A DNA stretch of 64,000 nucleotides from Vermamoeba vermiformis (GCA_045837725.1 JBEWZL010000266.1:496001-560000), one strand, 5' to 3'. Positions 290 through 25,300 are shown, counted from the first letter of the stretch. The notes: a model not told the origin generated them from the sequence alone. Numbers and translations are program-made.

Positions 290-3200
290 ATGTCGCAAAT
301 CAAAGTAGTACCATTAGGTTTGTCTACAAATATACGTTCTGTAATCATCTGACCTTGTGTGATGAAGGTGCTGGACAGGATGTCGGACGAAGCTGCGTAG
401 TCGTCACAATTGGAAACAAAAATATAATGTTTGATTGTGGTATGCACATGGGGTACAACGATGAAAGGTAAAGAGTTGGCAATACAATTTGCGACAAGAT
501 CCGAGTTATAAAAATTACCAAAAAATACCAAATTATTCTAAAATACAAATTATAGTTATATATGGTGCGGGTATAATATTTAGACCTTTAATTAAATATT
601 TGTATAATTATAGGCGGTTTCCTGACTTCAGTTATTTGTCGAAGAACAAAAATTTCGATAACGTCATTGATTGCGTTATTATCTCGCATTTGTATCCTTT
701 AAACAATTATTACAATCATATAATTTAATATTATCATTCGGTTATGTTGTTTTACCTTCACTTTGCTAACAATAGCCACTTGGATCACTGCGGCGCGTTG
801 CCTCATTTTACAGAGATGTTAGGGTACGTTTAATTCCTCGAAATTATCGTTTAAATATTAAAATTGATGTAAATACTGTATTTAGGTACAATGGACCCAT
901 CCTGATGACAGTAAGAAAAAATCAATCGTTAGTCGCTCGTATCATGTCATTTAATAGTACTTATATAGCATCCCACGAAAGCTATATGCCCTATATTATT
1001 AGAAGATTACAGAAAAATTACAGTAGAACGCAAAGGCGAGACGAATTTTTTCACCTCGCAAATGATCAAAGATTGCATGAAGAAAGGTACGTCGGGAGCT
1101 TGTCCAAAATCACCATAATATCAATATTATCGCATATTTTATGCTTGCAAATGCGAGTTGTTGTATTAACCTAATTTGATCCAAAGTTACCGCCGTGAAC
1201 ATTAACGAGACCACGGAGATTGAAGAAGATTTTGAAGTGCGAGCTTATTACGCGGGACACGTAAGTTTTAATCCTTTTGTCAATATTTATACCAAGATCG
1301 ATCGGTGGTGCGCTTAGTGGTGAGATTCGCGATCAGTCTAAAACAGATTCTGTGAATCTGGTGAGAACGCATCTCAAACAAATCAACAATAATTCAATGA
1401 AACGTTTATTTTGAGCTAATTAAGATCGCGCAACCCTTTGGGCTTCGAGTCCAAGGGCTGTTCGTCTTTTGCACGACCACGTGTGTTCCGACAAATTTCT
1501 CTCAACAACGGTGCTGTAGTTTAACGGGAGAATCCCTGTCTTGGACACAGGAGACCTTGGTTCGACTCCAAGCAGCGCCTTTATCTTTTTGCCCTTAATA
1601 CTGTTTTCAAGGAGCACCCGTCATGATGGTGATCGGTTAAGCAGCTCACGCCAAAGAGATTTTTTTTGGCATAATTAGGCTACAAGTTGTGAGAAATTAC
1701 TATGAAAAGGAAACCGATCACCACCGACGAGAGAACTGTGCAGTTCGTTGCAGCCAGAGTGTTGTTTCGTCAAACTCAATTCCCTCTACCACGTTGTCAA
1801 ACATGAGTTTATCTTATCCTGTGTTGCCGTACTCTAATCATACTGATTGCTCGCCTTTCTCTTTCGATCTGCCGACCTGACTTGGTCGCGCCCTTTCGTC
1901 CTGTCCCCTCGACGGACCAGTGAGGGCCGCGGTCATCAAACCGACCTTAGCTCAGTCGGTAGAGCGGAGGACTGTAGTGAAGCATCAATCCTTAGGTCGC
2001 TGGTTCGATTCCGGCAGGTCGGATTCCTCTTTTTTGCCGTGCGCAGCTTCTTTTGCAAACGGCCTCGTCATCCTAGAGCAAAGCCGCCATGGGCAAGAGA
2101 TTGCTTTAATTTTTTTTGGCTCCGGATATTCATCTTCATCATTTTTGTTACCGAACAACTAGGTTTATCTTGGTTCAAACCTTGTACTTGGGTACCGAAG
2201 GAGACAGCCGAAAAAACGGCCTGAGACTCGTTCTTTTTGACGACTTCGTTTGTTCTCGGTTGCTCGCTTTCAAGTGAGGGGGCGTAGCTCCAACGGTAGA
2301 GCGGCGGATTCCAGGTCCGATGGTTGCGTGTTCGAATCACGTCGCCCTCATTACCTTTTTTTTGCTTGACCGCTGATTAGTTTGTCATCAAGTCTTCGTT
2401 TTTCTTCGTCTGCCGATACTTTAAACGAACTTTTTTTTGGCCTCGATCTGACCTATGGCGGTTATGGTAGTGCTAGTTACTCAACTGGTTATTAACTATT
2501 TGTTATCGAATAGGTACTTGGAGCTGCCATGTTCTACGTGCGTGTTGGTTCGCAGAGCGTGGTGTACACAGGTGACTACAACATGACTCCTGATCGCCAC
2601 TTGGGCGGTGCTAGCATTGAGAAATTGCGGCCCAATTTGTTAATTACTGAAACTACGTAAGTAATATGCATCAATGATAGGTTTATCGTGCTTCCATGAG
2701 ATAATATTGCTGCGCCACATTTTTTTTGGGATGTGATCCGGAAATTTGTACTGAGCATTCTACAATAGGTATGCAACAACTATTCGAGATTCAAAACGCA
2801 TTCGCGAGCGAGATTTCTTGAAAAGAGTGCACGAGACAGTCGAGAAAGGAGGCAAAGTCCTCATTCCTGTCTTCGCGCTTGGTCGAGCTCAAGAGTTGTG
2901 TATTTTGATCGACGCATATTGGGAACGTATGAATTTAAATGTTCCTATTTATTTCTCTGCAGGTATGATTTTTTGCGGTTCGTAACGGATGCAGATCGTA
3001 CTAACAGCACTTTAGGCTTAACCGAGAAAGCCAACTTGTATTATAAGCTATTCATCAACTGGACCAATCAAAAGATTAAGAACACGTTTGTCAAGCGAAA
3101 TATGTTTGACTTTAAGCACATCAAGCCGTTCGAAAGATCTTTCGCCGATCGACCTGGACCAATGGTTCTATTTGCAACTCCGGGCATGTTGCACGCTGGT

Positions 3201-4725
3201 ATGAATATAAAACTATAATATAATGCTATTTTATCATTATTTTCAATAACAATTTTGACAAAAAAGATCTTTCAAACCTGCGCAGATCTACTTTGCGCAA
3301 TTTACGGATACCTTAATAATAGATAGAACTAACCCGCATTATAATATTAGGCACATCCTTGGAGGTCTTCAAAAAATGGTGCACAAGTGAGACTAATATG
3401 TGTATATTACCTGGCTATTGTGTGGTCGGAACAGTCGGCAACAAAATTTTAACGCAAAGCAATGTCGTACGTAAACTTATCAATTTTATTTCACCACCAC
3501 GACTAACTCAATACGAAAAAGACTATTGATATCGATAAGAAGACTAAAATTGAAGTTAAATGTCAAGTCAAAAGTTTGTCGTTCAGTGCTCACGCGGATG
3601 CGAAAGGCATTATGCAATTAATCCGACAATGTTGTCCTGATAATGTCATGTTAGTACACGGCGAGAAGGCTAAAATGTAAGTACTACAATAGATATCATA
3701 TTAACGAAATATTATCGATAAAAGATCTAACCTTTATTTTTCAGGGAATTTTTGCAACAGAGAATCATCAACGAATTTAAAATTCCGTGTTATTCACCTG
3801 CAAACGGCTGTACGCTAGTTATCAATCCAGCTTCAAACAGAGAATCAATTGCAAACATGATTCCAGTCGAGGCATCAAACTACTTGATTGAACAGCAATT
3901 TGAACATGATGACTTTGATGACGATTGTTATGAGGGGCCTAGAGGCATCGGAGATTTCGAGGATTTATTCAAGTCAGGTACGTACCGAAAGTGACACGTG
4001 GCACTCGATATTCTTCACAAATTTGAATATCGTGTCAACTTTTTCAAAATCAAGATTGATTTCTAACGTACAATATTATGCAGAATTTTGGGAAACAATG
4101 ATGGAAGACGCTGAAGATGATGAAAATCTCGTTCATGATCTACCGACCGGTGAACTGACAGCGCCAATCAACGCTGTAATTGTAGCAGACAAACCTCTCG
4201 ATGACACGGTACGACTACTTAGACTTATGACACGTGTCATTCGTTCAGTGAACGGAGAGATACACACGTGTCATTACTTTTTGCAAGTGTAAAAATGTCA
4301 TTCTAATTTCTCATAGAATGTCAAGCTCAAGTTGTTAGACATCAACGAGGCGTCAAGAGAACTTGGTGTGCCTCAACACAGTTTGCGATTCAACAGCACA
4401 GTGACTTTGAACCACCCACTGGATAAACCAGCGTTACTAAACAAAATTGAGGAAGAGCTGAAAAGGTGAGGGACGAAAATTCTATTATGAAAATTATTAA
4501 TCTGATTGTTTTACAGCCAAAAACTCCGCGATAAAATATCCGAATTTGACGGTTCAATTTTTCTGCGGTCGATAGAATTCAAATTGCATGAACTTGCTCA
4601 AAACAAGATTAAAATGTCATGGTTGTATGAAGTAAGTGCTATCGCGATATGATTAAAAATATATTAATATTTATTAATAGGACGAGGATTTGGCTGACTT
4701 TATTTTATCGTCCCTAAGTCAATAA
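290..4725 (+). CDS. INTS11: Integrator complex subunit 11 (CPSF73-like metallo-beta-lactamase/beta-CASP nuclease), multi-exon
   Basis: Spliced translation gives [73 protein letters not shown] and C-terminal SWLYEDEDL; GT-AG introns. Confidence 0.93.
692..775 (+). other. U12-type (minor spliceosome) GT-AG intron in INTS11
   Basis: 5' site GTATCCTTT, branch-like TTACCTTCAC about 14 nt before AG; removal restores ISHF/HLDH. Confidence 0.8.
1296..1470 (+). ncRNA. Unidentified structured Pol III-like RNA candidate
   Basis: A-box-like GCTTAGTGG, B-box/T-loop-like GCTTCGAGTCC in a CCCTT/AAGGG hairpin, helix CGCGATC(1328-1334)/GATCGCG(1424-1430), hairpin CAGATTC/GAATCTG, ends in TTTT. Confidence 0.45.
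1510..1580 (+). tRNA. tRNA with UGG anticodon (nominally Pro), atypical body
   Basis: Full cloverleaf: GGTGCTG/CAGCGCC acceptor, CCTGT-CTTGGAC-ACAGG anticodon arm, CTTGG-TTCGACT-CCAAG T arm, downstream T-run. Confidence 0.85.
1619..1729. ncRNA. Long hairpin / possible box C/D-like RNA
   Basis: Perfect 12-bp inverted repeat TGGTGATCGGTT(1627-1638)/AACCGATCACCA(1712-1723), closed by CGTC/GACG; inner CTCAC/GTGAG and GCCAAA/TTTGGC stems. Confidence 0.35.
1941..2023 (+). tRNA. tRNA-Tyr(GUA) with 10-nt intron (1978-1987)
   Basis: CCGACCTTAGCTCAGTCGGTAGAGCGGAGGACTGTAG[intron]ATCCTTAGGTCGCTGGTTCGATTCCGGCAGGTCGGA is a canonical eukaryotic tRNA-Tyr; T-run terminator follows. Confidence 0.97.
2278..2350 (+). 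tRNA. tRNA-Trp(CCA)
   Basis: Cloverleaf with loop TTCCAGG and the Trp-typical GGTTGCGTGTTCGAATCACGT; T-run terminator follows. Confidence 0.95.
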
Positions 4726-4774: not shown

Positions 4775-7745
4775 CTATTTGTTGACCTTTCGTTTAGCTA
4801 AGAAATATCCACCAAGAGCAACGCCAATCAAGCCGGCAATAGCAGCACCAACAAACATCGTTCTCGTTTGACCAAACGTTGACCAATGCTTTTTCGCTTT
4901 GTCATTACGATAGCTATTAATCCGCTCCACGAGTTGTCGCTCTGCTTCTTGTTTCAGCTCTTCAACTGGTGCGCTCAAATCAAATTTAAAACCGAAGAGG
5001 GCAACCAATGGGCCCCCAACGATTGCCTCTCGTATGTTTGTCCTGGTAGGGAGTTTTTTTAGCGTTTCTTCGAAAAATTTGAGTTCGAGCTCTTTTGTGA
5101 TCAATTTTTTGTTCTCTTTTGCTACTGCATGCAAGTACTCTTCTTTCGATGAAAAATTATCTGGTGAGAGCTTCAGCTTGAAAATGCCGTAAACAACGTA
5201 ACAGTCTAATTCTTGGTGAACTACGGACATGTCTTCGGCTGGCAGCTGTTTTGTGCATGCGGATAAACACTCCTCAATTATAAGTTGGGCAAATATGACG
5301 TTAAAAGGACTTGGCTTCGGGTAAGGTGATGGCGACGCGCTCATTTTGTTGTATAAATTGCGTACTGTCGTTAATAGCATGTCACATAGTAGTTTGTCCT
5401 CACAGGAAATTTTCTGAAATTTACGTTAAAAATTGATTTCTTGGAGAATTTAGTTATACTGATTACCTTCATAATGTTGTATTCATCAACCTTGTGGGCA
5501 ACACTTTGACACCCGCGATGAATCATCATTTCGTTGAGAGCAGCTAATCGGAGCCTAAATTACGGTTAATAATTAAGTAGTAAGTAAAGTATTTGATTTG
5601 ACGAACTTAAGCAATATCAGAAGGCAGTGGAAGTTAAAGTCTTCTGTGGTTTGATATTGTTCTTGCGGATCTAAAATTCTTCGCATAACTGGTTTTGTCC
5701 AAAACTCGCCGTTATCAATTGGCCGCTCAATAGAGACTATAAATTTTTTAATTACATTCATTTTGGCGTAAAATTAAGGTACTTACAATATTCCAGTTCG
5801 GCCAGCAGGTGAACGGCCCATTCATACTACAAATTTTAAGGTTTGGCTCGAGCTAACAAGGAAAAAAAACTTACGTTTGCAAAAGTCAGCTCGACTAATT
5901 CGTCCGCATGAAGTTTGACGAAGTACAAGCACCGTTCATGAAACCAAGAGTCAATGATATTCTCGGCCACATTAATTTTTTCAAGCCACGGCATAGTTCT
6001 GAAGCCCTAGTATTACGATGTTAGATTTCAATTGAAGCACTTTGTTGATTCGATTAAATTTACTGGAATTTGTTGTTCGATGCTCGGCGCGACTGCTTCC
6101 AGAAGTTTGTCAGCCTGTTTGATTTCTTCATCCGTAGTTCTATTGCGAAAATAGTTATTTTAATATTTATAACTTTCTCTGCATTAAGGACTTCGGCAAG
6201 CTAATTAAGGCGATATGACATCATTTTAAAAGTTCGCTGGTCCGTTGGACTTGCTTTGTCTTCCACTTACAGTTTTCGGAACGTTTCTACGGAGTTAAGA
6301 ATCATGCGAAAATATTCCAAGTCCGCAAGGTCTTGGCTTTCAATCGTAATTCTGGTTTCTGGATGTGGAACGCCATACGACAGCAAATAGCAGAACGAAG
6401 GCAGAGAGAATGGAGGCTTGGGCAAATTCCTATCAGAAGTGTAATAGTAGGGAGATTTCTTCGTATATTCCTCGTCGGGGATCGCGATCAGATGCGAAAC
6501 AACTAAACAGGAATTAGGGGAAGATTTTAAACTAAAATGATCGTACTTATTTCCGAGAATAATCGGAGTGACATTTTAGGCTGCTCTTTGCTCTGTTGAT
6601 ACTTAAGCAGATCGAACTCAAACGGATGTCCTCCCATGTTAACCGCCACTTCGTCTTGGAACAGCGAGATCGTTGCGTGTAGGCTTTTCAAATTTTTTAA
6701 CGGCTGGTCATCACTATTCTTCGTAGCTTCATAAACAAGATTTCCATTTTTGGTAAAAAACAATGAATTCCTTGCGAAGTTGATTCCAAAGCCCACTGGC
6801 TCAATAATTTTTAATTCAATAGCAGAATAATAATAATATAATACGTTACTTACGTGTATCTCCCACTTCAACAGCGGTTCCTACAGCGCAGATCATCGAA
6901 AAATCGCATTCCAGAAACACATCTGGAACTGTCGATATTCCGTATGAGCTTCTCGCTGATCCGACATATGATGAAGATCCTTCTAATGCCCCGCCAATGA
7001 TGGTGCACTGTAATTCAAAAGATCTGACGTTGCGTTATGAATTGGGGAGTTTGGGGGGGGTGGGGGGCCCCCCCTACTTTGTAATCAAAAACAAAATGTT
7101 TAGGTTTACGTACGGAGGTATCTTTAGAAATTCGACTTCAAAGTAAGCCGTGCTGAAATTGCCAATAGGATGAGGGTACAAAATGGTATCGCTTTGCACG
7201 ACCTAAATGATTGATTAGTATTGCAGGATCTCGATCGGGATAGTGTGAATTAGAAATAAGTAAGAAATGAACTCACCGCAGCAAAGCATAGTTCATCGAG
7301 CTTAGTATAGTCCATAGGCACCGGCAAGCTTTTGATTTGATTTTTCTCAATGCTAACTTGTTGAGATCTGTAGGTACCGATAAATTTCGCGTTGCGAAGC
7401 TTATCTCGAATGTATGACGCGATTCTGAACTCTTTTTTCCACTCAATGCTTTTTTGTACATTATTTTTCAGAATAGCGCCATGTCTGCCTTGAACGGGCG
7501 TCTCTAAAATTCGTAATCAGATCAATAATTTAATCCGAAAATTCCAAAAAATTACCTAATGCACCCCAACGGAATATTTTACGAGCTAGTTGTTCCCAAA
7601 GGCCATGTTGATCGTCAAACAATTTCAGATGCGTTGAATTAATACAATAGAAATTGATTATAGTTGACGTTGGGCAATATAACAATAGATCGACTAATAT
7701 TTCGTGAGGGACGAGCGTGAATATCGATTGCGTTGAGGTATCCAT
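4775..7745 (-). CDS. F-box-like/SPRY-domain protein with C-terminal membrane anchor, multi-exon
   Basis: N-terminal FTLVPHEILVDLLLY (F-box-like); SPRY motifs AYFEVEF, VGFGINF..LFFTKNG, VNMGGHPFEFD; terminal hydrophobic helix followed by KRKVNK. Exon joining is inferred. Confidence 0.6.
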
Positions 7746-7904
7746 TTGAAGAGTCAAAAAATCGAGTGACCAGATTTTTTAAGGCAGCTTAAGTCTAGTG
7801 TGAGTTCACGTAAAATAGTGATCACTATGGAAATTTCACCTTGTAGACGATCTGTATTTATTCGACTATGATGTTCCATTGACTTCAGTTTAAATTTATC
7901 GGAT

Positions 7905-10900
7905 CTACATGTCGTTTTCAATCTCTCTACTTGCTTCAGCTTCTTCTACTAACCTCTTTAATCCTTGAATATTTTGAGGCAATAACCGTTGGTGCATCAA
8001 GTAGCTTTCAACAACGTCAATCACCCTATTTGGACAATCAATCATCGCTTGCAACAACTCAAGTTGATTTGGCTTAAGCGCTGAGCCAATGATCGGCTTG
8101 CCAAAGTCAATTTCGAATTTGAACGCAGTGTCCACTAACACTCGAACCAGCATAAATTTGTCAATATGGTGGGTTTCTCTGTTTAAAACGTCAAAATGTC
8201 AAAGTACGAAAAAAAATACTATGGCACTTACAGATGCTTAAATCTTTGTAACAGCGCTGGAAATGCTAGTTCTGACTTAATCATTCCCAATAAGTAGATA
8301 GTATCAGTACTTTCGTCGTCTAACAGCGCATCAACTAAGAATTTTGGAGTTGCCTCACAATAGTGCAGGTAAACCCTCGCCAAACCAGCCACAATCGAAA
8401 GAGGCGACACACCTAGAAAAAAAATATCAGCGAAAGAAATCGTTAGTAATTTCTAGGTACCATTAGCTTTGAATTGCTTCCATTGGTCCAAGAAATATTC
8501 CAAACATTCATCACGTGGCGCTATTCTTGGGTACAAATAGCTCAGCGACCATAACATTTCGCCTTTAGTGGACCAATCGGAGTTCTTTTCGATTGCTTGT
8601 TTGAGAACCGGAACTGCTCCGAGATCGACTGCCTTGTCCAGCAACGGCAAAATTTTACACGCTTCACTCACACCTATTATCATATTCAATTAAATCCAGC
8701 AATCTTAGTTAACGAATATTTGCACTGGCAGTGCATTATTTGAAGCACTGAGCGGCGGTACTTACAATGCAAATCATCGCCCAGCAACAGCTTGAATATA
8801 ATGTGTATATCTTTCTTCACAAAAGTGTGTATTTGATGCACGTATCCAGCGAATTCGTCTTGGCCTGGATTAGGATACATTTCGTTGACATCGTAGTACT
8901 CTTTTTTGTATAGAAATTCTTCGGGGTTGAAGTACAACATGCTTCTAATGAGCCTTAGCAACGCAGGGTTAATGGTGCTGGAGCAGTCCAGTATTTCCAT
9001 CAAAAACGGAACAACGTGCGGAGCCACTAATTCACGATCCGTGAGTGAACCCATCCAGACCGGGATCTTACCTGGAAATAATGACCCTTGGTGCACTACG
9101 TTCGAGTATATTATGCTAAGTCCATCATTCTGCGTATCATGATTCCTACTCGCTAATTTTCTGATTGCGTCAGGTACTTGAATCGCTGGTCCATAAGCGT
9201 CTTGTAGCTCTGACCAATCAACTTTGTCTAACCCCGCAAAAGTAGGATAGTTTTTAATTTCGCTAGTACTCTTATCTGCGAATATTGACAATGATTAGTT
9301 AACTGCAGTCTTGTAGGTGGATGTGGATCCGCGTAGACTTACTTGCCAAAAACTCTTGAAGCGAAGCTCTTTGGTTGCATGATAACCCATATGTAGATAG
9401 TTTTTTTTCAATGCCTTCAATAGACCAAATTTTGTTCATCTCAACAAGCTGCTCTAAAGATCTGACGACGAACGGCTGTAGTTCCGTTACTTTCATGCCT
9501 GGCTCAATTTGTCCGTTCAAAGTAACCTCTAAGAACAAATCGACGCCTCTGATTAAGGTTGTCATGCTCTCTTCATGAGCATCAAGATGTTGCAAATGAA
9601 TGATCGCCTGATCCATAAACCAATCGATGACCGGTGTCAATTTCGGAACAACCTTGCCTATATAACATTATTATATTAGTGTTTGCGTACCATCGACTAT
9701 TCAAAAAGCGGTACGTACTTATAATATTGATCAACGAGTGGTGCTTGAACGGAATAGAGCTGAGAAACTAAATGTTAACGAATGAAACTGCTTATCATTA
9801 AAGTAAATATAGTTAAATATGTATCAATGCGTCTATTGATGCTAATCGAATGAAATTTACCTCCAGATCTGATCGTAGTACTTCTGAAATTTTATATAGT
9901 CAGCTAATGCTGTAGCGACTGCTTGGCTCGACTAAAAGTTAAATCGTTAGTCTTATTTTCCACATACTATCGATTATTACCTTCGTAAAGCGGCGACTTG
10001 CAATAAAAATCGAGGCAGCTAGTTTGGCGAGGGATGGATCTGGCGTCGCCAAAAACTTCTCCGTCGTGAGTGCATGTAACTTAATATTATCAGCAGCCAT
10101 TCGATTTTCTTTTTTGTAAAGCGCCAAAAGTGCACAGGCCCTAAGAATCCGAATATTATTAAAGGTCAACTTAAAATCTTTCGCGTGGGATCTACTTACC
10201 GGGTCTGATCGTCATCGTATTTTTCCGAAATTTCCGTTAATGTTTCCAAAATGATGTTATCACTATCGGTAGAGTGCACTTTCAAGCTGCTCATTAAATA
10301 GCAACAGCCTTGAATAAACTTCGGGTCATCTGTTCAAAATTAATACGGATCTCTGGCCAAGCCGGGATTACAAATTTGATAGAATTATTTGCTTACCTTT
10401 TTTGTCAATTTGGTCGATTATTTCGTCGAGATGCTTGTAAGTTGAATCGGACAATCGGTAAAGTGGAGTAGTCCAGTCCATCTCATTTTTTCGACCATCC
10501 GTTACCAAATGAGTAAGATCGATCATTTCTGCGCAAGAAGGTAAGCTTGGTTCTTCAAAAATCAAATATAAAACAATACGGTACCTGAAAGAAGGGATCC
10601 TTTTTGTAACGCATCCGAAACTAAAATTTCGAAGACCGAGTTGTTCACTACAACATTAATACTTAATTCCTCGCAATATAAATATTTTTGTATGCCTACC
10701 TGTCGCAAGCAAATCACAGAGCAATTTTGTGTTCTCGCCCACGCTTTTTAATCGTTCAAAAACGGAGCAAAAATTAAAGATCAACGATTTTCTAGCGACC
10801 GTTAAGTCTTCTTCGCTTTTGCTGGTCTTTAAAGTCTGTAATAAATTCGGTACTAATAAGAAAAACAAAATTAATTTTAAAAATTTGAGGATTGCATAAT

Positions 10901-11220
10901 TATTAATAGTTTACGAAAAGACTATTATTAATAAAAAAAACGCAACGTCTTACTATTTTTTACCCAGTCTCCAATGTGTCGATACTTCTTCCAAGTTTTA
11001 TCTGATGCAATGCTACTGCCAATGTCTTGTTGCTGCATTTTGATGGTGTACTATTGTAACCAAGGGATCCCTGTTCGATAATGTCTACAATGAAGAATAA
11101 TGATCGTGAAAAGTACCGTTGGGAACTTTCATGAAAGTCCCGATTTGGCAACTTGTGATTTCTAGGAAATAAATTAACTAACCCGCCAGGTTTACATTGC
11201 GTTACACCGATAGATAACAT
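7905..11220 (-). CDS. HEAT/ARM-repeat helical protein, multi-exon (5' end uncertain)
   Basis: Consecutive minus-strand helical exons separated by short introns; contains LDKVDWSELQDAYG..VHQGS..VPFLMEIL. Confidence 0.5.
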
Positions 11221-11223
11221 TGC

Positions 11224-14200
11224 TTATTTCTTAAGATCAGGAATCTTCTGAACGAGTTGCTTGAAGAACTCAGTGCCCTTCGCTGAGTTACCAAAAACGT
11301 TCAACGCTGGCGAGTACACAACGAGACCTCCAACGTTAGGAATTACGGCCATAATAACTCCTGCTTGGCTGCTCTTCGCAGGCAAGCCGACAGTTGCTTG
11401 CCTAAAAAAATCGTTAGATCGTGATCCAGATCAACCAATGTTGTTGTTATTTGTCAATTAAAAACTTACCAATCCTTAGAGTCGTTGTTCAAACCGCATG
11501 AATCCATAAAACTCAACGTCTCTTGTACGCATTCGGCTTGTGCGAGGTTAGCTTTGGTCAAGATGTGCGTGCCGTTATTAGCGAGGTTGGCGGCAATCAC
11601 CGCGAGAATGTTCGTGTTTGCTTCGATGGAATGCACTTGATTGAAGATGTCTGCGAGCTCCTTTACATCCGTGGCGGTGGTAATTATGTTTTGCTCTTTC
11701 TGTAATAAAAACTTTTAGCATCGAGTGTAACAGATCCGAGACGAGAAACGTACCAAGAAAGTTCCCATATTAACGACTTTGCTGAAGCAGAAGCGAATAG
11801 ACAGATAATCGGCCATGCAGCACTGCAACGGCATGTTGTTGCCGCTCTCAGACACGAACTGATTGTTATTCTTGGCGTCGTAACCTTGCATCAAGGTCGA
11901 CATGTAATTCAGCACAGACGAAATTCTATCCCACGGATATTTCACGCCCTAGGAGCGTTAGGTGAGTAAAGCGTGAGTGAATTATAGGAATCTATTATTA
12001 GACTTACAGGCATCTCAGTCAACCACGAGCACATCGTGTAGGCACCAGGGAAGTAGAACGGATTTTGAAGCGTTCTGTCGCACACACCGACCACATAAGC
12101 TGTCGCCTCCTTGGTTTTGAAAGCCGCAGAGACTTTGGAAGGCAACTTCTCTCGCATCATGAGGAACAACAATGGCCACGCAATGTCCGACAGAGGGAAG
12201 TTAGCGTTGCTGTCACCAATGGAGAAAGTCTCGCCAGTAACCGAACAAAACGCCGCAGCGAATTTGTTAGTATCTTGCATGCCCAAATAAGGATCAGACG
12301 CGCACTTCTGCCACGTGGCGCTTGGTTTCATCGCCTTCACAGAGTTGTACACCTCTCGCATTGCTGCAGTAATGGCAGCGAACTTGCCACTCGGCTTGGC
12401 CTGCGCGTTATTAGCAGGGGTTGGCGTGGGTGTAACGGTCGTCTTGGCGGGTGTAGGTGTTGGATTGACGTTCGTTTTGACAGGCGCAGGTGTGGCCGTT
12501 GTGGTACTTGGATTTGATCCCGTGCCCGTGTTTGCCACAGTGCGAGGAGCTACTTCAGGTGCAGACGTATTGCTTGCATTCGAGAATCCTCCGCTGTTGC
12601 GATGACCGCCAGAGAATCCAGAGCTGAAGGGTCTGGCTTCAGGCTTGGGTTCCACAGTAGGCTGCGGCTCGACAGCTTTAGGCGGAGTTGCTGGTGTAGG
12701 TTGCACGGGCTCGAGGTCTTTCTTAATGCTTCCGCTCGCGCTCAAAGGTTGCGGGTTGTGAATTTGAATGCCAGAAGTGCGAAGTCCTTTCGCGTCAAGG
12801 CTTGGCGATCCTGGGTTTGTGCTCGCAGTTCGTCTTGGATTCTCGCGCATGCTTGCCGAGAAGGTTCGTTTTCTTTCTGGTTGTGGAACTGGCTCTTCTG
12901 GCTCTTCTAGACCAGCCATTGCGTTCAACTCAAACATTTGCTTTCACAGTACTTAGTCACCGGTAATGTCATTAACTTGCTTACCCTTGCTGCTTCTTCG
13001 CTTAACTCCTCGACATAAGCAGATGAGAACCATCCAATCACGTTCGTAGAACTTTCACCTGAGTAAAGACCGCCGCGTTAAATAGAAATGCATCGGCATT
13101 TACCGTCATACTATACCTTTCCACCATCCAGTTTCATCTTTCTCAATGATGTAGATATACTCGTCGACGCCAAAGCTCAGCTCGTTTGGATCTGATGCTT
13201 GATACTCGAACGTTGTTTTGCAAATGCCAATAATCTCGACCAGATTCGGTTTTACGATTTCTAAAGGCACGTCGCGTTATTACGCTGGCTTTCATAGGAT
13301 TCAGGACTTACCATCGGCAACGCCCGAGCGACGCGGACGAAGAGTCTCAGAGATGGGAATCTTTGGGCCAGCTCGCTTAATCACCTCGGAGTTTGAAGGA
13401 GGTCGCTTTACATTGCCCGGTGTAGAGGTGGGAGTATTTGCTTTGGGAGTCGTTGGCTGCGGTGTAGCAGTGGGTTGCTGTTGGACGGTATTGTTCACCG
13501 TTACCGGTGTTTGCATAACCTTAGGAGCGCCAGCTGTAGCATTAGGTTGGCGGGGCTGAGGGTTTGGTGCCTTGGTTTGGCCTGGCTGTACTGGCTGAGC
13601 TCCGGGCTGAGCGGCTTTTTTGGGTGCTACTGGAGGCGTAGTTTGTGGCTGAAAACGGTTTAAAAATATTAGTAAAATATTATTGAAGGTTTACATAAAT
13701 AATTTGTGCTATTCGTAGGTCACTTACCGTCGCAGGAAATTCTCTGACGTAATTGCTCGGGAAAAAACCAACTTTGCCTTTACATTTGCCTTTCCACCAA
13801 CCAGTCTCGTCTTTTGATATTACTGAAATAGTGTCGCCTTTGCGTATAGTCAGCTCGATGGGCTCTTCAGCTGTGTAGTTTCCGATCGCAACAACTTCTG
13901 AGATGTAGACTCCTGGATCGACCTCTTCTCGAAACAAAGAGGCCCAATTCTTGCCAACATCTTCTTTTTCTAAATAAATGTCGATGAAGCCAGGGTGACT
14001 AGCTTGATATTGACCGTTGGTGATGCTTCCGCACGTAATTCCCTAGTAAAATATTAATTTTTGAATTGAGTAAAGCAAAATTCTTTTTAGCAATAATTTT
14101 AACGTGCTTTTAGTACATTGTGCAGTAATTGATAGGCTAAATCTTAATTTTTTTTTGTTTTGAAATTTATTGTACCAGATGTATTTTGAATTTCTTACCT

Positions 14201-14345
14201 GCAGAATATTATTGCCGTCCTTATCGACAACTCTTATTGTTGTATTGGTCAGTTTAATTTCAATTCCTGCTGCTTCAAAAGGCAAGGGAACATCTTTAAT
14301 AATAACTTGATCCGCTGTTTGCGTCCACTGCAGATCTAAATTCAT
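11224..14345 (-). CDS. CS domain - SH3 - Pro-rich - SH3 - Pro-rich - glutaminase-like protein
   Basis: WTQTADQVII (CS); two SH3 (ELTIRKGD..GWWKG..GFFPSNYV; ELSFGVDE..GWWKG..GWFSSAYV); glutaminase motifs FCSVTGETFSIGD, VGLPAKS, YSPALNVFGNS. Confidence 0.8.
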
Positions 14346-15099
14346 TTGCAAGAGCGGAGTCGATAGTATTTAATATTAAGAGCAGTAGTGCTAATTTACC
14401 GCGAGTAAAAGCAAAATAAGGGAGGCAGTTCGATTTTCATATTTTAGCCGCGCAAGAAACCAGATGTAATTTTGATTAATTAGTTAAGCACCATAATAGC
14501 GACACGATATAGTTGAAGGCATTAGAGTCTTCGAAAATAATGCTTAGTGGCGGTTGCAAATAGATGCACAGCAGATTTTGTTTTTAAACAGATTTGAATT
14601 CAAATCAGCCCTAAATAATAAAATGACATTATAATGGAGAATATTTACAAAATATCGGTCTCTGCAAAAAGCATCGTAGGCAAACTTGTCAACGTTGATC
14701 CAGATTAGCAAAAAATAATTGTCAGGCCCGTTGCTTACCGGCTATTTCAATAGAAGATATGTGAAGCTTCAATCGGCAATGTATAGTTGTTGGCCTGGAC
14801 AAACCCAGCACATCTGCTGTCATGTCTCGCGGATTCCAGTTGGACTTTGGTCTGTTGTCCGCGTATCTAGTATCTGTGTGCAAAGCCTAGCTGTCGTTAT
14901 CTCTTTCGAACAGCGAATAGAAATCTCAATTAGATTTGACACGCGAAGATTTTGTTTCGAAAGCAAAAAAAGGCAAGAAGATTTTTTCACTTTCTTGAAC
15001 TCATTTCACAACAGCTTAGCACACCTCGTAAAGGTTTGTTAACACTTTCTGTATCTATATTGTATAGCCCCGTATTGTATATATCCTATTTTAAACAAA

Positions 15100-17599
15100 A
15101 TGGCCGCTGCCGACGTTGGTATGTTCGTGATCCGGTTTACCGAGCTCAGATGGAGTGCTGAAGCGTAGACAAATATTAATTCTTGCTATTTAGACATCGA
15201 TTCTATGGATTTCGAAGCTGAAGACAACATTGAGGTAATTAAATTTAAAAACTGTCGGAGTTATAAAAGATCTAAATTATTGGTGGATTAGCAAAAGCGA
15301 GAAAACCAAACCGAGAGTGAATACTTGGCCTATGTCGAGAGCATGAGGTAAATAAATTTTCTCGTGGCAATTTCGCGATGCTAATCAATCTTTGCAATTT
15401 TAGACAGGAGAAACTGAAGCGGATCGAGGAAGAGCGCATGAAGAGCCGTGAGATTAAGGTTCAGTTAAACAAGGCTAGCAGAGCTGACGCCGAGCCTAGC
15501 CCTCGTAAGACTGAAGAAAAAGAGCCTGAATGGGTGTCTAAGCGCAAATCCGTCACTGTCAATGCGCCCGTCAAGATCGAGAAAGATATCGTGACTAAAG
15601 AAGGTAAATTACGCACCTATTATCAATCGAACCTCACATTGAATCGTGAGATTCTGCAGTTTATAAATTTCGCTATCTTGAAGATTTTTGTGTGGGACGT
15701 TGTTTCGGATCCAAAAAACTAATTTGGCAAACGGATTGCAAATTTAATAGATTCAATTGTTTGAATTTTCTACTACTGCGGTATTGCCGTATACAGCGAT
15801 TTTTTGGCTCGTGCACAAATTTTATTTGTCGGCAATCCGCTTGGCGACTTTAACCTGAAAACAAATACCACTATAGCAGCAATAGATAATGCGAGCATTA
15901 ATTAACAATATTGTCTATTAGAACGAGATGTCACTGCTCCTTGGGCTAAAGATCTCAAGTTGAAAAAGTCAACCACAAAAGAACCAGCTCCTCTTGTTCA
16001 AGCCCCTTCCACACAACAAGAGCCTAAGGCACAAATTATTGCCAAGGGTGTTGCTTCTGGTGGCGAGAACCCATGGGGTGTGCAGTTGAAGAAAAACAGA
16101 CGTAAGTTTCAGTTAGTTTAGGAGATCCGCTGTATTATAGCGGAGCGTTGCAAGCATGCTTTTAACATGACATGCAATACTGATGTTAATACTACGGCAC
16201 GCTTTCAGTTCAAGTTTTCTTCAATTTGACAAGATCTGACAATTTTTATTAGCTGGTGAGACCGAAGAGCCCAAGCCCACTAAATCAGAGCCCGTGCCTG
16301 AATTTGTTCAAAAGAGCTTAGCTCGCAAATCAGTCAAACTTGATAAATCAGCACTCGAGAATGCTCAAAACAGCGGTACTTCGTCTAACCCGAGTTCTGC
16401 TCGTTCATCGGGACCTGCGTCTGCGCGTGCTCTGTCCGCTGTCGATGAAGACGCCGAAATTGAACGCATGGTGCGCGAAGAAATGGAACGTGAGGAGGCC
16501 GAGAGACGTAAGTCTTGTAAATGCAATGGCAGGGTGTCCGAGCTAGTTATTAACAGACCTTTTGAATGCAGAAAAGAAGCGCGAGGAAGAAAAGCGCAAG
16601 GCTGACGAAGAAGACAGATTGATCAGAGAAGAACTCGAACGTGAAGAAGCTGAATTAAGTACGTTAATACGAGTGCTTTGTTTAGTCAAACTAACAAGTT
16701 GCTTTCATCTCAAGAACAAAAGGAAGAAGAGCGAAAGGCACGTGAAGCCGAAGAGAAACGTAAGGAAGAGGAAGCCGAGGCCAAGCGCAAGGCTGAAGAG
16801 CAGGCCGAGAACGAGCGAGTAGCCCGTGAAGCTGAAGAAAAGCGCAAAGCTGAAGAGGCTGAGGCCAAGCGTAAAGAAGAAGAAGCTGAAGCCAAGCGAC
16901 TAGAGGAAGAGGAAGCTGAGAACAAGCGCAAAGCTGAAGAGGCTGAGGCCAAGCGTAAAGAAGAAGAAGCTGAAGCCAAGCGACTCGAGGAAGAAGAAGC
17001 CGAGAACAAGCGCAAAGCTGAAGAACAGGCTGAGGCAGAGCGATTGGCTCGTGAGGCTGAGGAGAAGCGCAAGGCCGACGAAGAGGCTGAAAACAAACGC
17101 AAAGCTGAAGAACAAGCCGAGGCAGAGCGATTGGCTCGTGAGGCTGAAGAGAAACGTGAAGCTGAAGCTGAGGCTAAGAGACGTGAAGAAGAGGCTGAAA
17201 ACAAACGCAAAGCTGAAGAACAGGCTGAGTCCGAGCGATTGGCTCGTGAAGCCGAAGAAAAGCGTCAGGAAGAAGAAGCCGAGGCCAAGCGCAAGGCTGA
17301 ACAAGAATCTGAAGCCAAAGTTGCTCCAACCGCTACTGCCGGTAAGTTTCAATTGAAACAATACTTTGTACGCGTATACTAATATTTTTAAAGGTGGTGT
17401 TGACTCTGCTACATTCGCTGCTGCTTTAAAGCGGGTTCAAGATCTCGAGGCTTGGGTTGAGAAGTCTCAAGGAGCTTTAACCTCATTAGAAAGCGATAAC
17501 AAGAGCCTTAAAGAGTCTCTGAGCCAAGTTAAAGAAAACAACGAGAAGCTGACAAAGGAAGTCGCTAGCTTGCAAAAGATCTTGGAAGGCCTGAACTAA
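15100..17599 (+). CDS. E/K/R/A-rich single-alpha-helix / coiled-coil protein, multi-exon
   Basis: ATG GCC GCT at 15100; long EAEAKRKAEE repeats; terminal coiled coil; stop at 17597-17599. Confidence 0.75.
16720..17320 (+). repeat. Coding tandem repeats (EAEAKRK / AERLAREAEEKR units)
   Basis: Near-identical DNA units such as AAGCGCAAAGCTGAAGAGGCTGAGGCCAAGCGTAAAGAAGAAGAAGCTGAAGCCAAGCGACT recur. Confidence 0.85.
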
Positions 17600-17774
17600 A
17601 ATTCCGCTTGTCAATTAATTTTAAAATCCCATGTATTTATTTTTGAGCAATAATGAATTAACTTCATCTCGCGAAGATGCAAGCGAACCATTGCTCGTCT
17701 TTTGAATAGAATAAAATCATTTTGAAATCGAAAGAATAATTTTACTGGATCTTATAAATACAATAACATAATAT

Positions 17775-19026: not shown

Positions 19027-21755
19027 ATGGCTGTAACAGAGGTACTACCGTCAACCCAGTTTCACTTTCTGGTTTACGTTTATGACCCGATTACAATTTA
19101 ACTGCGGACATAATAATTAAAAATTCTACAATATTTTCCGTAAATTCAACGTGCAAATTATTAAGGCAATTAATCATTGATCCATTTTAGGTTTTGATTG
19201 AACTGGAACTTGCGACGGGATTAGATCCTGTTAATAAAGAAGAACCTAACATTAGCAAGCATATAGCTACTACGCTTAGGAAATTGTTTCCCGAGCTGCC
19301 TCAAGTGTCAGATGCGATCGAGAACACAATTGTAGAAAAATCTGGGAACACCCTATTGCACCATAATATGATGCACTACCTCACTTTAGCATACAACAAC
19401 CATTTCTCCATCGTCATTTCACCAGATATGATCTTCTACACGATCTTGTGCGAACTTGCTTCGGCCATCAAAGACAAGCCAGATGCGTTCCGCTTTTTAT
19501 TCACAAATAGCAGCGAGAAAGTGGCATTGTTAACTCTGACGCATGATCCAGCATATTTGGACCTTGACCAAGTTATTGCAGGTAATTTTGATTTTTGAAG
19601 ATCTGGACCTTTGTGTCAACTCATACTGATAACGATGTTTATAGGAATTACATCGAATATAGCGGTTGATGCTTCAATATTCACTGCCGATTTTTCGTGC
19701 TCAACTACCGAATCTAGGCTGGCGATCAAAGCAGCATTTTGTGACGCGATGTCGCCCTACTTCCATTACATGAACACGCGCTGTGGAATTCCTCGGATTA
19801 AAGTACTTGGTTCGCAACAAGATTGGATCAATTTGGAAACTAAAGTTTATCGAATGGCCACCGAAGTCTTCAATCAAGTTGGCGATCAAAGATTAGCAAA
19901 GTATATTTTTGGTGCACAAGAAATTGTCAAAAAAATGCGAACTGAGACGGATCCAGGCTTTTGGAGCGGAATATTTAGCATTGATCAATGTCACTCTGGT
20001 CATACAGATTTGGTCGTCGGTTGGATTACTTCTTTATTCAGAAAAGGCGCCGACGATTTCTACAAGTACGACTCGCACATTTCATCAGTTGAATGGACCA
20101 ATCTCGAGACTGGCAACGAGTATCAGCTGCGAACTGGCCTGTTGTACAGCGTCATCAATGAAGGCACGTCTGAACTGGACAAACTATTCCCTTGGTATGT
20201 TATTGTGCTTAATCGGTAGTCGGGATTTTTGGATACCTAAATTTGTCCTGTCTAATTAATTAATGATATTTTTTTTAGGTTGGAGCCTCAATTTGCGCAC
20301 CTAGTAATGAACAAAAACTTGAAGATGAAGCCAGAGCAGTACAAAGAATACATCAATGCTGTGCTCAAGGCTGACGACAAGAAAATTTTTCTCGGCTTCT
20401 TCGACGTTTTGAAAGACGAAGCTTTAATGATCAAGAAAGGAGACAAGCCTGAGGTGCAGAGACTAGAGATTGTCGGCAAGCAGTTCGACTACTGGTCTTC
20501 GCATCCGGATCTTCCTGTGGATCTCGATTTAAATGAAGGCAGATTTGGCGCAGCATTGGAGAGCTACAATACCGAGCGATATATACGAGAAGCTGATGCT
20601 GTTTTCGAGAAGCTGAAAAGAGTACTTGACACGTGTCCAGTCAAACGTCTAGTTCTGCCCAACTGGCGCCACAACTTGCTATTCAACAAAAGTGCCCAAA
20701 TATTGCAACTTCTAGCTGGTAAATCTTCCTTAGAAGAATTGACCATCAAAAGCATTTCAGACAAAGTACTTAGCTCCCTGACCCAGTTGCTGACTCACCA
20801 AGAATGCCGAGTCCAAAGCTTCCGCATAGAAATACGCCGCGCATTTTCTTCAAAATATAGTCAAGAAATTGCAAGCGCTATGCTCAGCATGAAGAATCCG
20901 TTGAAGAAGTTTGCAACGCGGATTGTTCCCGAGATGAATTTAGCGGACGCGATTTACAAACTCGCTACGAATGGCACTTTGACTGGCATTCGCATCACTT
21001 TTGCTGATGGAGAAAAGGAAGTGCTGAGACGAGTCATTGAAGCCATGGTTCATGCAAAGGGGCTCGAGGAAGTTGAATTACCAAATTTGGAAACGGAGAA
21101 CGAACTCTTTCAGAAGTTGGCGAAAGCGTGGAAAGGCAATTCTACGATAACCAGCGTTGCAATCAATGGATGGAGCTACGGCGAAAGATTGCTTAATATG
21201 GCGTTATCTTTGCCCTCGTTGAATACGTTACGCCTGAGTGCTACTTCAGAATTTGATTTCCTGGCAGTTACGACAAAGTTAGAAAAGTTGGAAATCATGA
21301 CAAAAGTTACCCCAGTGGCCGCAGCGAACATTGCCGAATTTTTGGCTCGTGACACGTGTCAACTTCAAGTCTTGATCATCGACGCTTTCTCTGCTTTAGA
21401 ACCCAATGCCTTGATTGCGTTGAGTGCAGGATTGGCAGAGAATCGCTCACTCAAAACGTTCAAATGCGAGTTGGTTGAGAACAATGACGAAGGAGTCGAA
21501 GAATTGGCGCAAAGTCTCGTAACACAACAAGGACTCGAAGAGATCAAAATCAAGGGTTACTTAAGGGGTCCAGTGGCACAAGAACATTTTATCAAATTTA
21601 TCGAAGAGAGCAAAACGATCAAGAAGGCATGCTTCAGTTTGCGATATTTTAACGATGTTCCTGAGTGGCCTCAACGAGAGCGGTTAATCAACGCAATTCA
21701 AACTAGCAACACGTTAACCAAACTGAAGCTCATTGGTTTGAAGAAGAAACAATGA
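19027..21755 (+). CDS. DUF4419-like domain fused to RNI-like leucine-rich repeats
   Basis: AYNNHFSIVISPDMIF, MSPYFHY..CGIPRIKVLGSQQDW, then LRR-like LSAGLAENRSLKTF..EGVEELAQSL. Confidence 0.75.
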
Positions 21756-22303: not shown

Positions 22304-25300
22304 ATGTCGCTAAAAAGGACTGTCAATTGGGTCGACCCCACTGAAGATTGGGTTCCTTACAAGCGATGTAGAATGGAAGATATATCTGATGAATTTATTG
22401 AATCGGTAAATACTGCATTATTACCGGATTTTCAACTTCGGATCTTTACAGAATTAATTCTTTAATCCAACCCTAAATTAATTTTTACAATCAATCAAGT
22501 AATAATATTTTTATTTGAAGTACCTTCCGCCCGAAGTACTGGTCAACATTTTCAAATTCTTGTCAATGCCTGACGTTGCAAGATCCGTTGTCCCTGTTTA
22601 CCAACGATGGAGGGATCTCGGTTACACGGAAGTAGAGCCTCAACAATTGCACGTTAAAGGGCACCTGTCACATTTATACATGCATGCTGTCCAGAATTAC
22701 AAGGTCTCTGCTCTGATTGTGACTGAAGGATCTCTGAACCAGATCGCCGCTCTTTTGTGTGCAAGTGCGCAACGAGACAAGACTATAACAAATGTGGTTG
22801 CCCATGGAATGTCACGTCCTACTCAGGGCCTAACAAAGGAAGAGTTTCATATCCTTGCAAATGTCGCCGAACTTGCGATCTACGCCGAACACATTGCTTA
22901 TTTGACATACTTTCCAAAAGTCACCCGCTTGCAATTGCTCCATAGTACTAGGAATTTGCCACGTTTTGCAAACAAGTTTGACTATGCTGAAGAATTGGCT
23001 GTTGACGCTCATTTCTTGACGCAACACTGTCAGTACCTTCTTTCGCTGTTCCCTTCACTGAAAAAGATCCACGTGACAAATGATCCTCAATTCACCGCAC
23101 TTGCAGTAGAAGACCAGTTAAAAGCACTGAACAAAGAGTTGGTGTGGCCTCACAACTACAGCGACGACCAGCTTGTGAACATGCCTTATCATCACTTCTA
23201 CTATCGAACAGGTCAGACTATGGCCGTCTCAAACTTTCCAGCTCTTGTGAAGAAGTGGAAGAAGACGATTGAATCAAATAAGAACAAAAAGACGGCCAAT
23301 ATGAGTTCGTCAGAGAACAAACTTCGTGCAAACATTACGTCGTTTGAGTACGAAAAAGAATTACAGACTAAGCCAGCCAAATACATATACCCGTCACTCC
23401 TCGACTTCTCCAAGAGGCTGCAAATCTCTGACGAAGTCTTGATTGCGGCCATCTCTGACCAAGCTGCTTTTATCCCAAATGCCCTGGACATCATAGTCAA
23501 CACTCAATTGCTTCCCTATTGGACGACACTTGACATGTGCATGGAGTACGACAACTTAGACTTGCTGCTGCAAGCACTGAAGGACTTGAAGAACCATACT
23601 GCAGCCGTCCAACTTCGCGTTGTTCAACGCCTTATTGAACGTCTTGGAGTTGCAGCGCTTATTGACAACCTCGGATTTGATGCATTTGTTCTACTGGCAA
23701 ACTCTTCGAATCACGAAGGCAGCACGTGTGTGTGTGTGTGTGTGGGCTATTTTTACGGGATTTTTCCCGAAGGTCGTGCGACACGCGGCGCCGAATTTGG
23801 CGCACAAGGATTTCTCCCGGGTCGTACCCCCTTGTGTGTTAGGGTTAGTGAATAAATACTAATTTTTGTATGTTTTTTGTAGTTTTTCTGGATTGTCTTT
23901 AAATTTCACTTTTAAGAAGTCGTGAAATACTTTACATCTGGATCTGTATATTTTTCTGTAGTATTTTATTTGCGCATTAAATAGATTATTTGCTAAATCG
24001 TCTCTGTCTTTTTTATTCGGAATAATCTTTAATTTTTTGTAAATTTCTTTCGTAAAATATCCGTATATTCCTGCCATCGTACTTTGGTCTTCGTTTTCCC
24101 ATTCTAATTCACTATGTTTTGTCCGATACCAACGTTCGCTTGGCTGTAGTTCGATATTATGTGGTCTTAGTATCCCGTCGATTTCGAGATCTAGTCTGGT
24201 ACGTAATTGTTCATATTTTGTGCATTTTCCTATTATGTGTTTTGTGTCTTCTGTTGCTCCACAATTGATGCAGTTTTCATCTTCGTAAATCTGTTGTAGT
24301 CTTTCAATTTCTCGATTGAATTCTTTCGTTGCGTCTTTTTTTGGTAAACGACGGAATATTTCTGCTTTTCCGTTTAATTGCTTGTGTCGTAGTTTCAGAA
24401 TGAATCCCGTGTCGATATTTTTTATATTAATCGCATTATTACTTGTTCGTTTGTGTATTACCGCGTTGAGTTTTCTGTGGTCTTTTTGGATTATATTTTG
24501 ACTTCGTTTGTTCTTTTCTTTTTATTATTTTTTTACTAGGTCTAGGTATTTGATTGATTTTCATATAATAATTATTCATCCTTTCAGGTTTCACTATGTT
24601 AGTTTCAAGATCCGTAGCTATTTTTGCCAGTTCATCGGCTTTTTCATTTCCTTCTATTATTAATTTATATTCGTTACCGTATTGAGTTGTAATGCTTCGA
24701 TTTTTGAGAAATTTGTTAATTTTTCTTCATCATTCGCGTACTGTTTCAATTTCATATCAATGTGACTTGGAACATGTTCGAACATCACATTTATTTGTCG
24801 ATTTACGATATGATCCTTTATTCGTTTAATAACTGCATCGTATTTATTGCGTTTCAATATTTGTGATCGTAGTGCCTCTCGTATCGTTTTAATCGAGCTT
24901 TCTGAGTCCGTAATGATCAAAACCTCTTTTCCGTTTGTTATTTTGCTGAGACCGTATTCAATTCCTTCTAGTTCGGATTCATACGAGTCTTGTATGTCAT
25001 TTGTTCGTTTTGATATGTTATATCGGTCATTTCCGAAGTATACGCCAAATCCTGCTTGGTTATTTTTCTTATTCATCGAACCATCCGTCCATATCGCTAT
25101 TCGGTCTTTTATTCGGTATTCTTCCGTATTGTATTGCTTGTTTTCCTTCGTTTGTTGTACTAGCGTTCGTTTGTATAATTGATTTGTTTTTAGCATGGGG
25201 AACGTGATATCGGCAACTAGGTTTTTGTACTCTTCTGGCGTTAATTCATCAGTGTCTTTCATTTGAGCGTTTATGCTATCTCGGTTTATTATTTCCCGGG

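Follow-up and report, generated by a model that had tools for sequence, protein, structure and literature searches.

A single spliced gene of Vermamoeba vermiformis encodes an 850-residue product in which an SH3 adaptor part is joined to a glutaminase A fold. The gene lies within the 64,000-nucleotide stretch of DNA analyzed here (the window), and alignment with active members of the family provides good support for regarding its glutaminase domain as a pseudoenzyme. The protein represents a real, conserved, apparently undescribed fusion of pseudoenzyme and adaptor in a narrow amoebozoan clade. The features of the gene and the Pfam matches in its neighborhood are collected in Table 1.

Table 1. 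Features of the gene and Pfam matches in neighboring genes (window coordinates)
Feature	Position	Strand	Remarks
Whole gene, 850 aa, 9 exons	11224..14345	-	CS-like/SH3/linker/SH3/linker/pseudo-glutaminase
Exons 1-9	14345-14199, 14042-13728, 13648-13312, 13260-13117, 13058-12985, 12940-12008, 11948-11754, 11699-11470, 11401-11224	-	
Likely CS-like domain, first half (aa 1-49)	14199..14345	-	exon 1; Pfam CS E 0.023; L010 E 0.12
Likely CS-like domain, second half (aa 50-90)	13920..14042	-	start of exon 2; profile ranking
SH3a (about aa 97-152)	13734..13901	-	canonical WW and GFFPSNY; 88% identical in L010
Linker 1, Pro/Thr/Gln-rich	13312..13648	-	exon 3; PxxPxK aa 160-165; conserved block aa 233-262
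RAGPKIP (aa 246-252), class-I-type SH3 ligand motif	13355..13375	-	kept in L010
SH3b	12985..13260	-	exons 4 and 5, intron 13059-13116; 83% identical in L010
Linker 2 (aa 340-525), Pro/Thr/Ser-rich	12383..12940	-	same open exon as start of glutaminase fold
RKRTFS (aa 362-367), RxRxxS basophilic kinase-type motif	12857..12874	-	
Pseudo-glutaminase domain (aa 526-850)	11224..12382	-	exons 6-9; introns 12007-11949, 11753-11700, 11469-11402
D-I-A-W (aa 591-594) for catalytic S-x-x-K	12176..12187	-	same in P0001-P0005 and P0011
Phe636 for substrate-binding Asn335	12050..12052	-	multiple alignment
Ile701 and Val708 for Glu381 and Asn388	11775..11798	-	gapless local alignment
Phe734 for Tyr414	11643..11645	-	alignment to human GLS
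Asn786 for catalytic Tyr466	11487..11489	-	SCGLN for SCGMY; alignment to human GLS
Gln804 for Val484	11365..11367	-	PAKSSQAG for PAKSGVAG; alignment to human GLS
DUF4419	19599-20216		
F-box	22506-23855		
F-box plus ankyrin	27754-29754		
FG nucleoporin	49002-49991		
Sec23/VWA-type	55140-56228		
LRR	58517-59260		

The reading frame of the nine joined exons runs from an ATG at 14345 to a TAA at 11224-11226 with no internal stop, which agrees exactly with the span given by the first-pass annotation. All eight introns are of the GT-AG type and 44-156 nt in length. All nine exons recur, in identical phases and again bordered by GT-AG, in a metagenome contig from a diverged relative (L010), where they encode 791 residues without a stop and the gene is flanked by the same neighbor genes. 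Intron 5 (12941-12984) is 44 nt long and uses an AAG acceptor; it is backed by a junction in X1, and L010 has TAG at this place.

Evidence for splicing was obtained by comparing four of five listed runs with window positions 10800-14700. The spliced RNA stems not from this strain but from relatives that are about 85-97% alike (the relative in X3 and X5 mostly 85-95%), at low depth and with exon 1 uncovered; that X1 is RNA is our guess, for which its spliced contigs argue. Junctions 2-3, 3-4, 5-6, 6-7 and 7-8, five of the eight, were seen in spliced reads or contigs, and these include all three inter-domain junctions. The joint of intron 7 is listed in X1 and that of intron 6 in X3 and X5. The three junctions that were not seen, 1-2, 4-5 and 8-9, lie inside the CS-like, SH3b and glutaminase domains, respectively. 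Three of six loose read or contig ends map to the neighboring exon: the X1 end that joins SH3b to exon 6 matches in 16/16 letters, the exon 2-3 end in 27/30 and the exon 3-4 end in 21/30, the last of these translating as DEAVKPNLV versus DEIVKPNLV in the window. The other three ends (12395, 12818 and 12874) have no good match in the window and resemble diverged linker. Exon 2 encodes both the second half of the CS-like region and SH3a, and exon 6 both linker 2 and the beginning of the glutaminase fold. The first-pass annotation had proposed one gene of this architecture, with a single transcript as the point to confirm; the inter-domain splicing in relatives and the gene in L010 bear this out, and the spliced RNA gave no sign of two separate genes.

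Pfam scans were run exon by exon. Glutaminase (PF04960) was matched by exons 6 (E 2.9e-6), 8 (9.6e-12) and 9 (3.3e-16), each reaching or exceeding the 27-bit cut-off, at profile positions 8-103, 156-226 and 230-281, which is the order of the profile. Exon 7 could be aligned through the multiple alignment alone, and neither it nor exon 3 gave a Pfam match. No PDZ or guanylate-kinase domain was found in these scans; matches to DUF7309, EspA_EspE and DUF5382_C fell below the Pfam cut-off and were dismissed.

The N-terminal region is likely, but not firmly, a CS-like domain. With exon 1 alone, CS (PF04969) scored 16.1 bits against a cut-off of 21.3, and when a profile of the joined N-terminal 92 residues was compared with 323 open reading frames of the same genome, the three CS-bearing frames ranked first to third, each weakly (E 0.03, 0.12 and 1.7). 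A PDB search with the CS-like region gave no match, and no presequence precedes it. Both SH3 domains exceed the Pfam cut-off (exon 2, E 2e-16; exon 4, E 7e-10). The last motif of SH3b is a non-canonical GWFSSAY, and both the Pro and the Asn that PxNY calls for are missing from it in the window and L010 alike. The best matches of SH3a include SH3 domains of the CD2AP/SH3KBP1, intersectin, Grb2 and myosin-I types; the ∼50% identity with CD2AP/SH3KBP1 proteins is confined to the SH3 domain and does not imply orthology.

The linkers diverge fast, with only 36-46% identity between the window and L010, and yet they retain several short motifs. RAGPKIP stands in an 80% conserved block ahead of SH3b, and PxxPxK just after SH3a; these are presumably SH3 ligands of the class I and class II types, respectively, by the definitions that we assume. 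The RxRxxS motif is found in the window, L010, P0002 and P0003, with KxRxxS in P0004. L010 does not conserve the PxxxPR motifs, and the pattern of the capping-protein (CPI) motif was not found in the protein; nor were EF-hand or ankyrin repeats. The layout of several SH3 domains with proline-rich linkers resembles that of CIN85 (SH3KBP1) and CD2AP, the names carried by matches of SH3a. CIN85 and CD2AP have three SH3 domains, a capping-protein motif and a C-terminal coiled coil for multimerization, whereas the window protein has two SH3 domains, no such motif and a glutaminase fold at its C terminus.

In human glutaminase, the catalytic residues are Ser286, Lys289 and Tyr466 (extract of PMC4929687; the same triad in an extract of PMC13142944). 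The extract of PMC4929687 further lists Tyr249, Gln285, Asn335, Glu381, Asn388, Tyr414 and Val484 as substrate contacts and reports significantly reduced activity for Ala mutants of Tyr249, Ser286, Lys289 and Tyr466 in human KGA. Direct alignment to human GLS paired FCLQSCVKP with FPLSDIAWP, a pairing with a pairwise E value of 0.3 that is weak alone, and the multiple alignment, which comprised eight domains of tandem proteins and other matches, gave the same register. The substitutions obtained from the direct alignment are Tyr249 to Ser, Ser286 to Asp (Asp591), Lys289 to Trp (Trp594), Tyr414 to Phe, Tyr466 to Asn and Val484 to Gln. Those from the multiple alignment, in which NP(M/Y/L/C)INxG aligned with NPFYFPG, are Gln285 to Ser, Asn335 to Phe, Glu381 to Ile and Asn388 to Val; the human numbers of these four were set by motif and partly by what we take to be the human sequence. 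The catalytic triad is therefore replaced by Asp/Trp/Asn and 0/7 substrate contacts are kept. In all, 10/10 of the catalytic, substrate and lid positions are changed, the replacements at substrate and lid contacts being mostly hydrophobic.

L010 has the same residue as the window at 9/10 of these positions, the exception being Ala at 285. Asp591, Trp594 and Phe636 are invariant in 6/6 ortholog rows, and Ile701, Val708, Phe734, Asn786 and Gln804 are common to the window and L010. Given that D-I-A-W occurs in six independent database proteins (P0001-P0005 and P0011), it is not an assembly error. The first-pass reading of a probably inactive glutaminase, with FPLSDIAWP for the S-x-x-K motif and NPFYFPG for NPMINAG, was reproduced, the former in both alignments and the latter in the multiple alignment, which places Asp and Trp, not Ser and Lys, at the catalytic positions.

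The likeness to glutaminase A (PF04960; human GLS/GLS2, EC 3.5.1.2) is one of fold-level homology along the whole domain, with exon 9 closer to human GLS/GLS2 (E 1.5e-10) than to Escherichia coli YbaS (E 2e-6). A model of the exon-6 fragment reached a pLDDT of 45, and its top 9 Foldseek rows were all glutaminases (E 0.45-0.75, none significant). Glutaminase A, however, has the catalytic Ser/Lys/Tyr and the substrate contacts, all of which, as far as tested, the window domain is without; and the EF-hand, ankyrin repeats and presequence of human GLS/GLS2 are missing from the window protein, which has SH3 and CS-like domains instead. As judged from these alignments, the protein is a glutaminase A homolog without the features by which the family is catalytic, and hence would not be a glutaminase.

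The domain is nevertheless maintained. Of the 28 differences between X1 and the window, 26 are listed; 16 of the listed ones fall in the glutaminase domain and 15 of these are synonymous, versus 27% expected (p 3.5e-8). Between the window and L010 the glutaminase domain has a dN of 0.080 and a dS of about 2.0, the latter near saturation, giving a dN/dS of about 0.04; the values for SH3a are similar (dN 0.065, dS 2.1). It is 84% identical between the two, against the low identity of the linkers. The glutaminase domain is under strong purifying selection and is not a decaying pseudogene.

Searches of the same genome (a 43.3-Mb assembly of 309 contigs with short GT-AG introns) with the Pfam profile, P0016 and P0014 gave glutaminase matches at this locus only, a lower bound in an assembly that may be incomplete. 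An active glutaminase elsewhere is made less likely by this result because an active enzyme should outscore so diverged a copy. Near relatives were represented by exon-6 fragments with 83-98% identity (5/56 candidates) and by P0011 with 64%. A HMMER search of the full library, with a query profile that included linker columns, returned 10 proteins at E values up to 0.001, namely two orthologs and eight other glutaminase-family proteins. PF04960 was present in 0/88 matches of an exon-2 (SH3) profile; an exon-8 profile run against longer proteins scored 0/244 candidates, which is weak evidence; viral contigs contained no relative of the family or of P0018; and the ESM Atlas yielded generic glutaminase and SH3 clusters only. 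The sequence collections searched, in which intron-split genes are poorly represented so that a wider presence is possible, yielded no SH3-glutaminase fusion outside the narrow clade. The literature searched, within which most subscription papers did not fall, yielded no description of such a fusion or of a glutaminase-A pseudoenzyme. The architecture was also unfamiliar at first pass.

In a tree of 11 domains, built without the fragment rows P0011, P0013, P0018 and P0019, the window and L010 domains share a very long branch with no supported sister group. The glutaminase domain keeps only 46/113 columns that are invariant in four active protist domains; its identity to active protist domains is 22-28%. 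In comparison with active enzymes, conservation is highest in the C-terminal exon, at 36-46% versus 10-32% in the rest of the domain. Exon 6 has slightly more identity with degenerate domains (25-31%) than with active ones (18-22%).

A dead glutaminase domain has precedent in protist tandem glutaminases. In each of P0012, P0015, P0016 (Andalucia godoyi) and P0017, an S-x-x-K domain is accompanied by a degenerate one, which is N-terminal in P0012 and P0017 and C-terminal in P0015 and P0016. The second domain of P0016 has lost Ser and Lys and keeps Tyr249, Asn335, Glu381, Asn388, Tyr414 and Tyr466, and is a candidate glutamine-binding regulatory domain. P0020 (Echinamoeba exundans), which may be a partial transcript, has ankyrin repeats followed by a glutaminase domain with LEAAANP, in which Ser and Lys are lost and the same six residues are kept. 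Although these domains share with the window domain the loss of the Ser of S-x-x-K, they are fused to ankyrin repeats and not to SH3, the reverse of the window protein, and, except for P0020 as recorded, they are paired with an active domain that the window protein is without. They also keep 55-86/113 invariant columns, versus 46 in the window, and the window domain does not group with them in the tree. The degenerate tandem halves suggest a possible route in which a domain was duplicated, one copy ceased to be catalytic and new fusion partners were then acquired. A 2017 study by Pasquali et al. is said to treat glutaminase domain evolution and could bear on the degenerate protist domains. P0018 is an exon-like fragment with Pro/Glu/Lys-rich low-complexity repeats and a recurring LKKR, after which a glutaminase start follows. 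It has Ser to Asp and Tyr249 to Ser as in the window and apparently passes into an intron where P0011 does, at one and the same alignment column; it is possibly a distant cousin or an independent cytoskeleton-linked pseudo-glutaminase.

On balance, we favor the reading that the protein is a cytosolic multidomain adaptor in which the dead glutaminase domain would serve as a protein-interaction or oligomerization module. The cytosolic location is suggested by the absence of a presequence, unlike in mitochondrial GLS. The two SH3 domains would bind proline-rich partners, such as cortex, endocytic or signaling proteins, and may fold back onto the conserved PxxP motifs of the protein itself, while the RxRxxS site in linker 2 would allow kinase control; conservation of PxxPxK, RAGPKIP and RxRxxS within otherwise fast linkers agrees with an adaptor that binds to itself and is regulated by a kinase. 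The dead domain would be a folded interaction module, most simply a dimer or tetramer as in glutaminases, presenting four to eight SH3 domains together. Asp386, which forms a salt bridge with Lys396 in the GAC tetramer (extract of PMC8800119), is Ser/Gly here, and because of this loss the tetramer may not be kept; since the fold has diverged so far, its surfaces could serve another role. Alternatively, the domain may bind a partner through its remodeled pocket surface, in the manner of the dead guanylate kinase of MAGUKs. A further contact, with a chaperone or a partner, would come from the CS-like domain, and the adaptor is predicted neither to hydrolyze nor to sense glutamine.

The nearest analogy in logic is offered by MAGUK proteins (PDZ-SH3-GK), in which a metabolic-enzyme domain was turned into a protein-interaction domain in the same protein as SH3. 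The MAGUK GK is described as such an enzyme-derived interaction domain in extracts of PMC3335814 and PMC4718807. The enzyme folds are unrelated, PDZ occurs only in MAGUK, and the long disordered linkers between SH3 and the dead enzyme are unlike MAGUK; the relation is thus one of analogy and not of membership. If the glutaminase domain is an interaction module, it would be the second clean instance, with the MAGUK GK as the first, in which SH3 signaling has taken over a metabolic enzyme. It would also offer a natural way to tell the glutaminase surfaces used for assembly from those used for catalysis, a point of current interest for GAC filaments. Such a case carries limited weight, given the narrow clade and a functional role that is predicted from sequence. 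A bolder version, in which the amoeba lineage lost glutaminase A activity altogether and kept the fold only as a kinase-controlled, self-assembling (tetramer or filament) cytosolic hub for the clustering of SH3 domains, possibly with distant protist cousins such as P0018, is tentative and rather doubtful; if true, the glutaminase fold would be a new scaffold domain derived from an enzyme, as the GK domain is in MAGUK proteins.

Several other readings were weighed against an adaptor. The remodeled, more hydrophobic pocket might bind a new small molecule other than glutamine, the domain being a ligand sensor that opens or closes the SH3 region. In favor of this, the replacement residues of the pocket are themselves invariant among orthologs, but the whole domain is equally conserved, so that conservation of the pocket is not special, and the bulky Trp, Phe, Ile and Val could simply fill the cavity; we regard this as unlikely. 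It is distinctly unlikely that the domain assembles into GAC-like filaments, forming a linear, SH3-studded cytosolic scaffold, even though catalytically dead GAC (Y466W) forms persistent filaments (extract of PMC9949068). In mammalian GAC/GLS2, the filament interface involves Phe373, Asn375, Phe378, Gln379, Asp412 and Gln416 (extracts of PMC9949068 and PMC8800119). Asp412 and Gln416 are identical in the window domain (2/6), Phe378 is Tyr, and Arg387/Glu397 are Lys/Glu; Phe373, Asn375 and Gln379, however, are changed, and active domains have a longer activation loop. These interface residues are poorly kept in active protist domains too. Moreover, GAC filaments need phosphate and substrate-closed lids, the residues of which are lost here, and stable filaments are described as a gain of mammalian GAC (extract of PMC13142944). 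The polymerizing scaffold suggested at first pass is possible in so far as Asp412, Gln416 and a Tyr for Phe378 are present, and is weakened by the loss of Asp386 and the shortened loop.

The other first-pass suggestion, a glutamine/glutamate sensor that has lost catalysis and kept binding, is not supported and is quite improbable. The fold is retained, and searches of the genome found no second locus of the glutaminase family, but the side chains that bind the amino and carboxyl groups of the amino acid (list in the extract of PMC4929687) are all replaced, Gln285, Asn335, Glu381, Asn388 and Tyr414 being among the ten changed positions. The second domain of P0016 and P0020, with six contacts kept despite the loss of Ser and Lys, would be better sensor candidates and illustrate how a pseudoenzyme that retains its ligand might appear.

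A regulatory subunit that forms hetero-oligomers with an active glutaminase, much as the degenerate domains in the four tandem proteins may do in cis, would suit the slight closeness of exon 6 to degenerate domains; it is very unlikely given that no other glutaminase locus was found in this possibly incomplete assembly and that the tree places the domain with no group. Equally improbable is a new enzyme acting on a different substrate with Asp591 or another residue as nucleophile. Asp591 is invariant in orthologs, and an acidic residue occupies its position in P0018 (Asp) and the N-terminal domain of P0012 (Glu), but the general base is gone (Lys to Trp, both Tyr lost) and neither the Pfam exon scans nor the ESM Atlas revealed a motif of another hydrolase family. 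Finally, an artifact, whether from two neighboring genes, a pseudogene in decay or a misassembled active site, is scarcely credible and largely refuted: no single record among the reads and contigs compared spans the whole transcript, three junctions were unseen and exon 6 of this genome contains a Met in frame, but the X1 end joins SH3b to exon 6, L010 has the same introns and is without Met at that place, and the low dN/dS and the six independent proteins with D-I-A-W count against an artifact.

Several features of the neighborhood were recorded in passing. The divergently transcribed neighbor at 15100-17700 (plus strand), syntenic in L010, encodes a coiled-coil protein that is rich in Lys, Glu and Ala, contains short K-rich motifs with a Trp (PWAKDLKLKK, PWGVQLKK) and gave no Pfam match. 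On the other side, ∼6 kb of the window (about 4800-11000) has no match in L010, where a Beta-CASP-type gene (window about 950-4720) directly adjoins the pseudo-glutaminase gene; genes were gained or moved in one lineage. An AT-rich open reading frame at 24660-26483 (minus strand) carries reverse transcriptase and RNase H domains and resembles a piece of a non-LTR retroelement. Elsewhere in the genome, the actin family gave 123 profile matches, many of them diverged, with at least six copies sharing an identical top score; the best PDB matches of the main actin, from which we take the genome to be amoebozoan, are 4efh, 1nlv and 3chw, which we take to be Acanthamoeba and Dictyostelium actins.
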